A stretch of DNA of 64,000 nt from Eledone cirrhosa (lineage: Eukaryota): NCBI GenBank assembly GCA_964016885.1, contig OZ024743.1, forward strand, positions 220,658,001 to 220,722,000. The letters are read 5' to 3'. This document shows, one piece after another, positions 12,444 to 58,210 of this stretch. The position numbers and the translations under genes are program-made. The notes under the pieces were generated by a model that saw nothing but the letters and a program-made list of their open reading frames with translations, had not been told where the DNA came from and made no database searches. Position 1 is the first letter of the stretch; each line of letters begins with the position of its first letter.

Positions 12444-12623
12444 ATAATAATAATAATAATAATTGTTTCTACTTTTTTGGCACAAGGCCAGCAATTACCC
12501 AGTACATTACTGGTACTTTATTTTATCGACCCGGTAGGATGAAAGGCAAAGTGAACCTCGGCGGTATTTGAACTCAGACCGTAAAGGGACGTAACTATGC
12601 TGGAAAGCATGCCGTCCGACTCT
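12444..12623 (-). mobile_element. tRNA-derived SINE, family 1 (5'-truncated)
   Basis: Reverse complement of the gagttcaaat..ccgccgagg..ctttgcctttcatcct..gggtcgataaaataaagtaccag consensus with a (TAA)n tail. Confidence 0.8.
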
Positions 12624-16680: not shown

Positions 16681-16860
16681 ATAATTGTTTCTACTTTAGG
16701 CACAAGGTCAGCAATTAACCAGTACATTACTGGTACTTTATTTTATCGACCCCGTAAGGATGAAAGGCAAAGTGAACCTCGGCGGGATTTGAACTCAGAC
16801 TGTAACAGGACGTAACTATGCTAGAAAGCATGGCGTCCGACCCTCTACCAATACTGCCAA
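16681..16860 (-). mobile_element. tRNA-derived SINE, family 1
   Basis: Near full-length reverse complement of the copy at 27989. Confidence 0.85.
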
Positions 16861-17273
16861 TAGCCAATAATATTGATATATATGGCATATTAATTCTATA
16901 CTCACGAGATGAAATGCATTTAACGCTAGTGTTGCAATATTATCGAGAAATGGTGGTAAAATATGGCAGATTGAATGAATAAAAAGACATAGGATATGTT
17001 TGTACTAAAAACAGTTTATCTAGATTTACTACACTTGAGTGCAAAGTGACGGCGAACAATTCACTTCTTGAAGATAGAGAAAAGAACTGTTCTAATATTT
17101 GGAATCAATTATATATCAAATTAATATCAACATTGCATTTCTGCGGCTGGGTAGGTATATATGATCTGAGATTGTGTGTTGAGATTGAAACGTGTTAATA
17201 ACTAAGTTTAGTAAAGAACTAAAACGTGACACAACGCATATTACACATTGACTAAATCTTTGCACTTAGTTTA

Positions 17274-17848: not shown

Positions 17849-20030
<2,182 letters not shown>

Positions 20031-20888: not shown

Positions 20889-20944
20889 ACTGCCTGATGA
20901 GGTCATAGCCATTCAATGGCTATCATCGAAATATATATAGCAGT
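20889..20944 (+). ncRNA. Well-formed type I hammerhead ribozyme (orphan pLTR)
   Basis: actgc-CTGATGA-ggtcatagcca(ttcaa)tggctatcatc-GAAA-tatata-TA-gcagt; 5-bp stem I; AUA triplet. Confidence 0.85.
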
Positions 20945-27779: not shown

Positions 27780-27988
27780 GAAAATATTGTAGCAAAAAGC
27801 CAATATATATATTCGTACAGTGAGCTACGTAACAGAATTTGAGAGATCTCACTCTGTCAGAAGATCTATACGTAATAACGATTTTACATAACCTTGTATA
27901 TTGTTATTTAATATCATTATTATATAAGTACTATATAAGTATTATATAATATAATTATTATATGAGTATTATATAATAATTATATAAT

Positions 27989-28180
27989 GGCGGTGGATTG
28001 GCAATATCGGTAGAGGGTCGGACGCCATGCTTTCCAGCATAGTTACGTCCCTTTACGATCCGAGTTCAAATCCCGCCGAGGTTGACTTTGCCTTTCATCC
28101 TTACGGGGTCGATAAAATAAGGTACCAGTAATGCACAGGGGATTAGCTGGCCTTGTGCTTAAAGTAGAAACAATTATTAT
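27989..28180 (+). mobile_element. tRNA-derived SINE, family 1 (full length)
   Basis: A-box tggcaatatcgg, B-box gagttcaaatccc, core gcctttcatccttacggggtcgataaaa, tail aaacaattatta. Confidence 0.88.
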
Positions 28181-28209
28181 ATAAGTATTATATAATAATA
28201 CTTATATAC

Positions 28210-28401
28210 GGCGGTGGATTGGCAGTATCGGTAGAGAGTCGGACGCCATGCTTTGACGCAAAGAGTTACGGCCTTTTCCATTATGAGTTCAAATCCCGCC
28301 GAGGTTAACTTTGCCTTTCATCCTTACGGGGTCGATAAAATAAAGTACCAGTAATACACTGGGTAATTGCTGGCCTTGTGCCTAAAGTAGAAACAATTAT
28401 T
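28210..28401 (+). mobile_element. tRNA-derived SINE, family 1 (tandem neighbour)
   Basis: Same consensus, 30 bp downstream of the previous copy. Confidence 0.88.
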
Positions 28402-28599
28402 ATATACGTATTATGTAACGAGCAGGCAGGTAATAAAGCAACACTTCATATAAATTAATCATAAATAGATATACAATATAGACAGAATATGATAAAGCGC
28501 TAATCGTTAGAACGGACCAAGGAAACAACGTTTCTATTGGTCTTGCCATAGCTGATACTATCTGTCAGTAGCAACTTCTGGCAGAAGGTGTAACGTATT

Positions 28600-46907: not shown

Positions 46908-47181
<274 letters not shown>

Positions 47182-47220
47182 CACATATATGTATATATAT
47201 ACACATATGTATATATATAT

Positions 47221-47254
<34 letters not shown>

Positions 47255-47383
47255 GTAGATAAATCTACCAAAATATACGGTAGTGTTCAATCCGTATGAA
47301 GAACTCAATATAATCCAAATATCATGAAAAGAAAAGATGTATTCAAAATCTTTTGATGAAAAATACAAGAAAACAGAGTCAAG

Positions 47384-47767
47384 ATAACTTAATAAAAATA
47401 ATGAATAAAAACAAAGAAACAGTTCCTTATATTAAAAAATTCATCATTTTACGATCGTTTCTAGGATATATATGTGTGTGTTGGTATGTATATCATATAG
47501 ATCTATGTAAAAAATTTACAAACTATCAGAAGGAATATACATACCTACACATATATATGCTGTCTTCAGAAATAATCATTTCTGAAGACAGCATATATAT
47601 GTGTAGGTATGTATATTCCTTCTGATAGTTTGTAATTTTTTTACATAGATCTATATGATATACATACCAACACACACATATATATCCTAGAAACGATCAT
47701 AAAATGATGAATTTTTTAATATAAGGAACTGTTTCTTTGTTTTTATTCATTATTTTTATTAAGTTAT
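47384..47767. mobile_element. Near-perfect 384-bp fold-back of two head-to-head long-stem-II HHRs
   Basis: Axis cagaaat-aatc-atttctg; minus HHR 47445-47574 (CTGAAGA..GAAA-cgatcg-TA-aaatg), plus HHR 47577-47706 (cattt-CTGAAGA..GAAA-cgatca-TA-aaatg). Confidence 0.88.
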
Positions 47768-48178
47768 ATATATATATATATGTATAAAAAACATGGGAAG
47801 AAAGAGGAAGACTGTGTGGTTGCACATGGGTTACATATTATAAAATTAGTCCCTCATCAGTGATTTGCCAACCATCATTGGTATTTCATCGCATTAAAAA
47901 TCATATACCTCAGGTTGGTGCGAGCAATAACCAAAATAAGCTATTGGGACAAGTGAATCGCGTAAAGCGAGTGAGACAAGTAAACAACATAGAAGGAAAA
48001 CAAACCGAAGGTGTATATATTTATATATATAGCGTAAGCGTAATGCGAAGAAATGCCTATGGTGGCTAGTAGATCACTGATGATGGATAGTCCTGGCTTC
48101 TATTTCTAATCCATATATATATATATCAAGAAAGAAGAGTGACACGGTTTGCTATATAATAAGGGCTTTAATCACTTT

Positions 48179-48284
48179 GCTGACAATTGTTTCTCTGAAC
48201 TGGTAGGTCTAGAGATCGCTACCCGCCTGTTTCTGCGCCAATCGATCACCAAAACATAGTTATAACCAGTCAATTCATCAGAGC
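48179..48284 (-). ncRNA. Type I HHR with extended stem II (PLE-D inverted pLTR)
   Basis: gct-CTGATGA-attgactgg..ccagttcag-a-GAAA-caattg-TC-agc. Confidence 0.78.
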
Positions 48285-49903
48285 TAGCGAGAATTGAATT
48301 TGAAATTGAAATAATAATAGCGGCTAGAAGGACAATCATAAAATTTGAAAATAGCTACTGGGTAAGAAAAGATAGGATAAACAGCTTCAATATCACAATG
48401 GGATCAAATGACTCAGCGCAAATCACTCACGTCATGGGGCTATTTATAGCACACAACCTACATAAAGAATTCAGTAACCTCCAAGGAGGGATTTATAGAG
48501 ATAACACGCTCCTTATAGCTAGGAACTTAAACAACCAGAGCATGGAAAGATTGAGAAAAAATATTAGAACATTCTTAAAAAAACTAGGCCTACGAACTTA
48601 ATCATAAAGAGGTAAACTTTCGAGATGTGACTCTAAATCTAAATACGGGATTAATGGAACCCTTCCACAAAAATAATGAGAATCTGGCCTACATTAGTCA
48701 TAATTCAAACCACCCCAAATCCATAATCAGATCCATAGCTCGTAGTATATCCCTTAGAATATCCCGCTTATCCTCAAACCTAGAAATTGTTAATGAACAT
48801 GCTAACTATTATAACGCGGCATTACATATGGCCGGACACAAAGAAAAGCTGCAGTTTATAACGGATAAAGACAACTCAAACAAACCTACTAACATTGACA
48901 CCAACCGCTCACACAAAAATAGAGGTAACATGACTAGACATAGAGTTAGGCACGTAGCACCTAGAGTAAGTGGTCCAAACACCAACAATGTAAACCCTGG
49001 AAACAATAGAAAAATTAGAGAAAGAAAATACCTGTGGTTCAATCCAATCTTCAACTCCTCTGTAAAAGCTAGACTGCCTTCTACGTTCTTTAAACTAATA
49101 GATAAACACTTCCCTATATCACACAGATATCATAAAATCCTCAATAGAAAAACTATAAAACTCTCATACTCTACGGCTGCAAATATAGAATCCCAAACAC
49201 GAAAGATTAACCACAGAAATACCTCTAGAGAATCCGCCCCACCTATGCACAACATAGCACCAAATTTTAAACATAAACACATCACAGTATCACAACCGCA
49301 AACGCATACAAGCACACAACAGCAAAACCTCAACGGGCACGAATCACAACCCACTCATAGCAGTGTGCAAAACAGCAGTGTGGAAGCTGCACGGAATAAC
49401 ACCAAACTGCAACTGTCACCTACCGGATAGGTGCCCATTGGCGAACAGATGCCTTGATTCGAGCCTAGTGTACATGTGTACGGTGAACTCGAGCAACTGC
49501 ACTTGGCATTACATTGGATCCACCGCGGGTACTTAAAAAAAAAGATGATATGTATACAGACACTCGATGAAGAACCGTGCACTTATAGGTTCTACAACCC
49601 TCGCCAAAAAAATCTGGGAGCTTAAGGACAATAACATCAACTACAATATCAACTGGTCGAGGTTGTCGGCCGCAAGGGCATATAGTACCGCTATGTCCTA
49701 TTGTAGGCTCTGCACCTTGAATTACTGTATATCCTTAGGAATGAAAAAAGTCTACTCAACAACAAGATAGAAAGATCAATTTTCTGCAGGCACAGGATCG
49801 CCACTAAATTCACAAGATTTAATCCACCGTGAATCGAACCAACATAACTTAGGATTCAACATATGAAATCCACACTATTACACAGACCACCACAGAACTA
49901 TAA

Positions 49904-51447: not shown

Positions 51448-51635
51448 TGATGGTGGTGGATTGGCAGTATCGGTAGAGGGTCGGACGTCATGCTTTCCAG
51501 CATAGTTACGTCCCTTTACGATCTGAGTTCAAATCCCGCCGAGGTTGACTTTGCCTTTCATCCTTACGGGGTCGATAAAATAAAGTACCAGTAATGCACT
51601 GGGTAATTGCTGGCATTGTGCCTAAAGTAGAAACA
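51448..51635 (+). mobile_element. tRNA-derived SINE, family 1, with 19-bp TSD
   Basis: attactatatatagaagcc at 51429-51447 and 51636-51654. Confidence 0.92.
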
Positions 51636-51684
51636 ATTACTATATATAGAAGCCATGCCTGTGTATTCCCTTCATTCTCGCTAT

Positions 51685-51789
51685 CTCTGATGAATTGAGT
51701 GGTTATAACTATGTATTGGTGATCGATTGACGCAGAAACAGGCGGGTGGCGATCTCTAGACCTACCAGTTCAGAGAAACAATTGTCAGC
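51685..51789 (+). ncRNA. Type I HHR with extended stem II (PLE-D 3' pLTR)
   Basis: ct-CTGATGA-attgagtgg..ccagttcag-a-GAAA-caattg-TC-ag; GUC at 51784-51786. Confidence 0.75.
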
Positions 51790-52021
51790 AAAGTGATTAA
51801 AGCCCTTATTATATAGCAAGCCGTGTCACTCTTCTTTCTTGATTTATCATTACTCCAAGTGTAAGCTACATAGTAATCACCGCGTATTCGCAACCTCACT
51901 ATGGAAACGCCTTGTTGATTGTTGAGTCAAACTTAGCCAAGCGTTAATACCATCCACTACTGGGAATACCCTAACTGGACTACACCTAAGTGGACTACCT
52001 ATAACAATAATCTGTTACCCC

Positions 52022-52504: not shown

Positions 52505-52729
52505 TACATATATATATATATATGTGTGTACAAGCATACACATACACAAACATAGCCATACACACACACATATACATACATTCACACAATCATACATATA
52601 TACACACGTACATACATACACATACATAAATGCACTCCTCTACATATTCACACACGCAAATAAATATAAGAAAAAAAAAATATATATATTAAAAATTTTT
52701 TAAAATTATAATAAATTTTTAAAAATTAT

Positions 52730-53467
52730 AATAAAGCCCTTAAGAACAGCGGTTTTACAGAAAAAAATTCTTATTTACCTACTCCCCCCCCCCCTAAAAC
52801 TAACCACAATAACAGGAAAAGGAAGATTATTTGGTTCACACCCCCCTTCTCTCTAACTGTCAAAACTAATGTAGGAAGGAAATTCCTTGAACTATTAGAC
52901 AAACATTTTCCTCCTAATCATAGATATTATAAGATATTTAATAGGAACGTACTTAAGATCAGCTACTCTTGTTGCCCATCTATGAAGTCCAAAATCACCA
53001 GTTCAAACCGTACGAAAATAAATCCAGGATGCAGTTGCAGGAAGCCGGATGAATGCCCATTGCAGGGTAAATGTAACACCAAATCTGTCGTTTATGTGGC
53101 TAAGATAGCACCGGTAATCAACAACCAGCCAGCCAGGAGTAAGCGATATGTCGGTATGACCCAGGACAGGTTTAAAACCAGATTTGACTCACATGTCGCT
53201 TCTTTTAAGCACTCCGATAAACGAACATCAACGGCCCTCGCAAGTAAGGTGTGGGAACTCAAGGATAGTAACATCCCGTACTCTATTGATTGGTCTATAT
53301 TAGACCATTCGAGGGAGTACCAAAGGGGCACAAAGAATTGTTCTTTGTGTACCACAGAAAAGTATAGGATTTTGCTAAACTTGAGAGCCACTTCCGCTTG
53401 CCTTAACTCAAAGACTGAGATCTTCAGATGCTGTCCTCATCTGAAATCGCATCTGATCTGTAACTGA
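52730..53467 (+). pseudogene. PLE-E linker plus intact-looking GIY-YIG endonuclease (5'-truncated, no RT)
   Basis: RKRKIIWFTPPFS..KIFNRNVLKISYSC..CSCRKPDECPLQGKC..VVYVAKI..YVGMTQDRFKTRFDSHVASF..CSLCTTEK..LNSKTEIFRCCPH. Confidence 0.9.
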
Positions 53468-57825: not shown

Positions 57826-58210
57826 GGCGGTGGATTGGCAGTATCGGTAGAGGGTCGGACGCCATGCTTTGAAGCACAGAGTTACGGCCCTTTATTGTCC
57901 GAGTTCAAATCCCGCCGAGGTTAACTTTGCCTTTCATCCTTACGGGGTCGATAAAATAAAGTACCGGTAATACACTGGGCAATTGCTGGCCTTGTGCCAA
58001 AAGTAGAAACAATTATTAATAATAACGATAATAATAATATTGGTTTCTGATTTAGGCACAAGACCAATAATTTGGTCGGTAGGGAAAGTCGATTAAATCG
58101 ACCCCAGTGCATTACTGGTACTTAATTTTATCAACCCTGTAAGGATGAAATGCAAAGTTAACCTCAGTAGGATTTGAACTCAGAAAGTAAAGGACCGTAG
58201 CTCTATACCG
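57826..58210. mobile_element. Tail-to-tail pair of family-1 SINEs (57826-58017 +, 58038-58210 -)
   Basis: Consensus on the plus strand, shared (TAA)n spacer, then the reverse-complement copy. Confidence 0.85.

Follow-up and report, generated by a model that had tools for sequence, protein, structure and literature searches.

Structure of the locus

The window analyzed here is a 64,000-nucleotide stretch of the Eledone cirrhosa genome (contig OZ024743.1 of assembly GCA_964016885.1, forward-strand positions 220,658,001 to 220,722,000), and all coordinates are counted from its first base. Two arms of 190 nt each (47384–47573 and 47578–47767) are 99% complementary, are spaced by the 4-nt loop AATC and form a hairpin with exactly two mismatches in 190 bp (47452/47699 and 47515/47636). 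An earlier note on this DNA had described a near-perfect hairpin of 384 bp; near-perfect it is, while 384 bp is the total span and the stem measures 190 bp. Its further observation that each arm begins at stem I of a hammerhead, with the axis about 5 nt from CUGAAGA, was confirmed: this motif starts at 47582 (+) and 47569 (−), each time 6 nt off the axis.

The features of the locus are collected in Table 1. (TA)n adjoins both outer ends of the pair, and the copy itself contains no ORF. Beyond the interval 47384–47767 covered by the earlier note, the minus-strand arm (LONG) carries a 129-nt tail, with which it spans 47576 to 47255; the plus-strand arm (SHORT) is tail-less. The tail, the (TA)n at both ends, the identity of the arms as pseudo-LTRs (pLTRs) of a Penelope-like element (PLE) and their recurrence at 236 loci are additions to that description.

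Table 1. Features of the inverted pair and its flanks (window coordinates)
Feature	Position	Strand	Basis
(TA)n/(CA)n microsatellite, left side of insertion target	47069–47254	.	sequence
One-sided tail of the LONG arm, 129 nt, to the fixed distal end	47255–47383	−	same end at many loci
LONG arm, tail excluded: pLTR between +1 (47576, the A that opens ATTATTT) and 47384, where SHORT copies end	47384–47576	−	
Type I hammerhead, intact core	47443–47576	−	sequence
Minus hammerhead, stem I	47576–47570 with 47449–47443	−	
Minus hammerhead, CUGAAGA	47569–47563	−	
Minus hammerhead, stem II (101 nt)	47562–47462	−	
Minus hammerhead, GAAA	47461–47458	−	
Minus hammerhead, stem III (2 bp, palindromic loop) and predicted cleavage site	47450/47449	−	
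Extra G directly 5' of the LONG arm +1 (element's own base here: C)	47577	−	sequence against natural upstream
SHORT arm: pLTR from +4 to the fixed proximal end, without tail	47578–47767	+	
Type I hammerhead with G16.2>A at 47699, breaking stem III and dimer palindrome	47575–47708	+	
Plus hammerhead, CUGAAGA	47582–47588	+	
Plus hammerhead, stem II	47589–47689	+	
Plus hammerhead, GAAA	47690–47693	+	
Plus hammerhead, predicted cleavage site	47701/47702	+	
(AT)7, right side of insertion target	47768–47781	.	sequence

Hammerhead cores and predicted folding

In each arm CUGAAGA is followed by a 101-nt insert, GAAA, a stem III of 2 bp capped by the loop GAUC, and UA. This supports the earlier assignment of two putative head-to-head type I hammerheads, judged by sequence and by pairing kept across families. 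The minus-arm core is complete (CUGANGA, GAAA, UH and stems I–III), and its GAAA-CGAUCG-UA segment is intact, as had been described. The plus arm fails at stem III through the one substitution that had been reported, G>A at 47699. The expected stem II of about 100 nt is 101 nt long, and the helices named for it form in both arms (z = −3.4 and −4.4). The proposed hammerhead fold thus held for stem II; the hammerhead junction is not part of the minimum-energy structure, and in the minus arm UUUCUG pairs with UAGAAA, burying the core. When the hammerhead is imposed on the fold, the energy rises by 6.0 kcal/mol for the minus arm, 2.6 for the plus arm and 3.4 for one natural copy. Self-pairing of the stem III palindrome between two RNAs was calculated at −12.0 kcal/mol for the minus arm vs −4.8 for the plus arm. 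Dimer cleavage was reportedly described by Lunse et al. in 2017.

At the base of stem II a C–A pair takes the place of G10.1–C11.1 in 158/159 family copies and in 23/23 copies of a sister family; counts for stem III are circular, the copies having been chosen by that motif. The Rfam search returned no hammerhead match at the gathering score or at E ≤ 10, where only sub-threshold miRNA-hairpin and other chance matches appeared. Other families in the genome combine the same stem III with an ordinary stem II of 19–21 nt (82 matches; control 5). These short-stem families also form opposite-strand pairs, mostly 120–230 nt apart (L179/L180, L196/L197 and three more). A separate hammerhead-like motif with a short stem II lies at 20894 (+) in the window.

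The parent element

The arm repeat is present in high copy number in the 3.0-Gb genome: 1,537 candidates were found, exact matches to a 22-mer gave at least 3,502 family copies, and 1,435 carry the element's own upstream sequence. Judged by protein motifs, the arm is the pLTR of an EN+ PLE of the Hydra clade. In non-inverted copies a GIY-YIG ORF lies about 0.8 kb upstream, and tandem pLTR-ORF-pLTR copies (L131–L133) have a repeat unit of 3.8–4.2 kb. In tandem copies (L131–L134) the 129-nt tail continues into the 5' leader and ORF. RT and IVY-YIG motifs are present in P0001 and P0002 of this family, whose protein shows HSDKTG (DKT), CNCRNKANC (CxCX5C), CKLC (CxxC), CNH (CxH) and a single Cys between IVY and YIG in the GIY-YIG core. 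All were read by eye and set against published definitions. Five ORF pieces from the window and four from the family gave no significant Pfam match.

Comparisons with published systems, here and below, refer to the available portions of the cited sources. The Hydra clade is defined by DKT for DKG, a CxCX5C linker, CxxC and CxH around conserved E and N, and no CCHH (PMC8557442). The present family shares the DKT, CxCX5C, CxxC and CxH motifs with these C-terminal EN+ PLEs (section 11 of that source), as well as the single Cys of the GIY-YIG core, the (TA)n target and a hammerhead near the 3' end. It differs in reading RWR for RWK and in its unit length, against generally <3 kb in the clade. The clade includes Hydra-1_Obim, from which the family is distinct by hammerhead sequence, and Penelope-13_HM, which has an inverted 5' copy (PMC8557442). 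Insertion into (TA)n and a hammerhead in the pLTR are seen across the family. There are two fixed points at which copies stop and (AT)n follows, one proximal (SHORT) and the other, 129 nt beyond it, distal (LONG).

The ORF at 48266–49770 was considered as the parent of the hairpin and rejected, as it belongs to a different PLE family with 32–51% identity to the hairpin family's protein. This ORF is on the plus strand and is broken. Penelope-like ORF fragments also occur at 52715–53467 (+) and 18026–19461 (+), at 31–48% identity. An inverted pair at 48121–48294 and 51674–51847, 96% alike over 174 nt and carrying a CTGATGA...GAAAC motif, may represent the inverted pLTRs of the element at 48266–49770. 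The right flank of the hairpin is occupied by another repeat adjoining (TA)n (47784–48010). The same repeat flanks the hairpin at L045, which suggests nested insertions into (TA)n. The window also contains an abundant SINE-like repeat with an AATTAT-like 3' end (51450–51645, 27987–28183, 28210–28406, 16682–16861, 57826–58018 and 12456–12623), which we take to carry a tRNA-like box.

A conserved stem II

Stem II is 101 nt long in 75/159 family copies and 105 nt in 35/159. The sister family (292 matches) has the same start, a stem II of about 100–103 nt and, at L198 and L200, the same head-to-head junction. An alignment of 25 copies, 12 and 13 from the two families and chosen for full-length stem II, had 96% of cells paired, against 34–59% in slid controls. 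Four pairs were changed on both sides, a covariation that amounts in effect to one comparison of two families, not to many independent changes. Counted from the core, pairs 1 (C–A) and 4 (C–C) are mismatched in both families, and pairs 2, 5, 6, 7 and 10 are A–U/U–A in this family vs G–C in the sister (159 and 23 copies). The stem II rod is thus under structural selection. Because the corresponding helix of the sister family is GC-rich, what selection preserves is the pairing and not the repeat.

The basal helix of the 101-nt stem II is AU/GU-rich in this family, and its TA/TG look is a fixed family feature, this family's version of the helix. The earlier note had proposed that TA/TG repeats were recruited as a ribozyme helix. 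As a description TA/TG-like is apt; recruitment would be conjecture, the sequence being fixed, its length nearly so, and the sister helix GC-rich. Capture of stem II from a genomic microsatellite is possible. Within 47607–47690 (+) and its mirror, stem II also contains a splice-donor-like AG/GTATGT at +33 together with an AG that ends on the G of GAAA, and a splice between the two would regenerate GAAA. No spliced join was found in 209 loci or in 65 variant copies drawn from the whole genome, and the donor context at +33 is not kept in the sister family.

Recurrence of the head-to-head junction

The head-to-head junction pattern was matched 236 times genome-wide and its reversed control 0 times, so the junction is not a chance arrangement. 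Since the spacers vary, the 236 junctions are separate events. Fifty-one were examined in detail, the first 50 listed and the one in the window. Thirty-four paired LONG with SHORT and four a partial LONG with SHORT, none joined like with like, and in the remaining 13 one arm was cut short or unclassifiable. Longer inverted pairs (L140–L143) likewise combine a tailed and a tail-less arm. The match of the 102 arms to the natural upstream sequence extended exactly 7 nt in 50, ≤7 nt in 89 and >7 nt in 13; in these 50 the arm starts exactly 7 nt ahead of CUGAAGA, in many cases preceded by an additional G. The spacers were perfect loop-less palindromes in 9/51 junctions (by eye), and many overlapped by 1–2 nt. 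At the 45 loci with two full ribozyme arms, arm identity was 98.9% within a locus vs 91.1% between loci, and a locus's own partner arm beat every other locus in only 21/45. One locus, L024, has a triple fold-back with repeated partial ribozyme arms. At L009 both flanks, read outward, are alike, as if the hairpin sat between inverted ends of another repeat.

The fixed start and the extra G

Solo copies join (TA)n at this same start (144 reverse-strand matches, the forward matches being redundant). Sixteen distinct solo loci were retrieved, of which 11 were SHORT, 3 LONG and 2 truncated. Among 57 distinct solo loci read by eye, 29 were seamless, 3 started later, and the base before the start was otherwise G (8), C (10), A (4) or T (3). 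Microhomology by itself was rejected as an explanation for the fixed start: a longer stretch of it within stem II gave only 6 matches vs 144 (3 target-joined, 2 inverted joins and 1 repeat expansion), the count of 6 being a lower bound from a search with 0 forward matches. The sequence around the start, TC/ATT, is Inr-like. Raw RAD reads of three other individuals contained 282, 251 and 349 loose ends at the start base, a read depth that is not a copy number. Opposite-strand joints fell at 1607–1612 of the L131 reference, where +1 is 1608 (within 4 nt); these reads test the family and not the hairpin locus. The majority sequence of the loose ends at L131:1608 ends in repeated starts, each time after G, and is probably dominated by one RAD locus.

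In 41 filler-bearing arms with an intact start, the preceding base was G in 17, the natural C in 13, T in 6 and A in 5. Other filler was G+C at 15/87 positions, and the excess of G was significant against 0.14 (p = 1.6e-5) and against 0.25 (p = 0.015). Five junctions can be read either way, and with 10 arms dropped by hand G stood in 12/31. An extra G is seen with LONG and SHORT arms alike, and the two arms of L039 and of L092 each have one. The G at 47577, which recurs in other junctions, is likely a reverse-transcribed cap. Counting against a cap, G stands at −1 in only 214/3,502 copies genome-wide and in 8/57 solo copies, and some Gs could be templated from the CTGA of the partner arm. The 13/102 arms that extend past +1 likewise count against the origin preferred below. 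Together, the fixed start and the extra G suggest a transcription start site.

The SINE has landed repeatedly at exactly +1 in both families, with the start duplicated to varying extents; at times it is tandemly arranged or present in each arm of a single insertion (L004, L005, L010, L015, L019, L052, L054, L056, L061, L140, L203, L231 and L233; 6/30 unselected copies). A single ancestral subfamily of SINE-joined copies was rejected, as the 5' junctions differ. The SINE ends in AATTAT-like sequence everywhere, and 41/56 of its ends lie elsewhere than +1. Its clustering at +1 is as compatible with a DNA nick or RT pause site as with an RNA end, and it is possible that +1 is such a nick or pause site.

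Origin of the inverted pair

The hairpin is real, and the locus itself is an ordinary transposon footprint. It consists of two pLTR ends of a Hydra-clade PLE, one tailed and one tail-less, set head to head in (TA)n, and we consider it probable (roughly 70%) that they arose in a single insertion in which both target strands primed reverse transcription. The element's endonuclease would cut both strands of (TA)n. One cut end would prime at the distal start and yield the LONG arm; the SHORT arm would come from priming by the other end at the proximal internal start. The template would be RNA from one source copy, beginning at ATTATTT, and both cDNAs would traverse the uncleaved ribozyme and reach the RNA's capped 5' end. 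Microhomology or filler would then unite the two cDNA ends, and the G at 47577 would be a remnant of the cap. For an anole PLE, work in vitro has shown that two RT start sites enclose a tail, that both strands are cut and extended, and that the RNA is used unprocessed (PMC11167929). By analogy, we infer that this scheme may extend to the present family. The two hammerheads are best explained as passengers of the insertion: they sit on opposite strands, a read-through transcript would hide both inside a 190-bp duplex, and the plus copy lacks stem III.

EN+ PLEs typically show head-to-head pLTRs, the inverted one 5'-truncated and only one of the two tailed, as in Adineta Pen2/Pen2a (PMC3846280) and Drosophila virilis Penelope (PMC2377424), with a general scheme in PMC8557442. 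An internal promoter and a 5'-UTR intron within the pLTR also belong to the features of EN+ PLEs. The palindromic junction and Inr-like sequence in the pLTR are likewise shared with such insertions. Here, in contrast, there is no ORF between the arms, the junction falls at one base in hundreds of loci, and target duplication is unreadable in (TA)n. The tail, at 129 nt vs 30–40 bp in the literature, also counts against our preferred explanation.

Palindromes of this kind have been read as self-priming in the published account of PLE head-to-head junctions (PMC3846280). Applied here, one cDNA (or antisense RNA) would have folded back at +1 and been copied, the endonuclease would have resolved the intermediate at the proximal end to leave the one-sided tail, and +1 would be a pause or nick site instead of a capped RNA end. 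A tail left by endonuclease resolution also has precedent (PMC8557442). The near identity of the arms of one locus is in line with a single event, but fold-back copying or gene conversion would predict it equally well. A small AAATA/TATTT palindrome in the natural sequence at +1, the clustering of SINE insertions there and the preference of the anole PLE endonuclease for 5'-ATT-3' (PMC11167929) would all suit it too. Against it, solo copies without a partner start at the same base, and loop-less spacers and 1–2-nt overlaps arise more easily by annealing of two 3' ends. These loop-less palindromic spacers, and a G found with LONG and SHORT arms alike and at two loci with both together, favor an origin from two cDNAs. 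We regard self-priming as rather unlikely, if deserving of serious consideration.

Beyond the dual-priming origin proposed above, we tentatively entertain, at somewhat under even odds, a wider sequence-based model of the family. The pLTR would be a self-propagating mini-element of 193/322 nt whose capped RNA begins at the first base of stem I. The pairing of tailed and tail-less arms with cap Gs would then represent PLE inverted repeats made by twin priming from two internal RT starts on uncleaved RNA, with the 101-nt rod holding the ribozyme off.

A functional host or element unit (paired ribozymes, an siRNA source or an editing substrate, with a microsatellite captured in stem II) is very improbable. 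Read-through RNA is predicted to form a 190-bp duplex of −287 kcal/mol, stem II pairing is under selection, and capture is conceivable for an element that targets (TA)n. However, the ribozymes lie on opposite strands, so that no transcript holds both in sense and they cannot cooperate or dimerize in cis. Moreover, the plus copy has a stem III mutation, the 236 loci have varied spacers and often a truncated arm, the structure under selection is a property of the element family and not of this locus, and the sister helix is GC-rich. An assembly artefact from a fold-back read is scarcely credible: the hairpin locus itself is known from the assembly and the reads bear on the family, but the arms are unequal by the one-sided tail, the flanks differ, the arms disagree at two sites, arm types are strictly paired, and opposite-strand joints occur at the same place in raw short reads of three other individuals.

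Relation to known hammerheads and retroelements

Among the listed Hydra hammerheads (PMC8557442 File S2) a mismatch at the base of stem II is frequent and several have the CUGAAGA core, as here; C–A at this position is listed for PLE-X1_cBra, and mismatches there are common in PLE hammerheads. In contrast, stem II is 101 nt here vs about 10–25 nt in the listed examples (PMC8557442). The minimal type I hammerheads of metazoan PLEs (PMC4209133) share the type I topology, the 2-bp stem III and the palindromic loop (dimer type). Dual hammerheads on opposite strands, 100–700 bp apart, were already noted there. The present family differs from them in having C–A in place of the G10.1–C11.1 pair stressed in that work, and in its very long stem II, missed by standard descriptors and Rfam.

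The Poseidon element of Anolis, PAc (PMC11167929), resembles the family as modeled here in that two RT starts enclose the tail, the target is AT-rich, both strands are cut and extended, and the template is uncleaved RNA. It differs in belonging to another clade and in having start sites that are close together and inside the ORF; inverted pairs are not examined in the available part of that study. Non-LTR retrozymes (bioRxiv 10.64898/2026.07.22.740005) are likewise short, non-coding, pLTR-derived units with a type I hammerhead. Retrozymes are head-to-tail tandems that start at the cleavage site, whereas copies of this family are solo, inverted or ORF-spaced and start upstream of it; the window copy is head-to-head and not a head-to-tail monomer tandem. 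In the literature searched, mostly outside subscription papers, we found no report of PLE twin priming, of solo pLTR mini-elements with a cap G, or of this family.

Neither Rfam nor the usual short-stem descriptors detect the 101-nt stem II variant, and hammerhead counts in such genomes are therefore probably too low. The 236 junctions, with their fixed start, two fixed ends and strict arm asymmetry, provide a dataset on the origin of PLE inverted repeats. The same set bears on whether the PLE ribozyme cuts its template.
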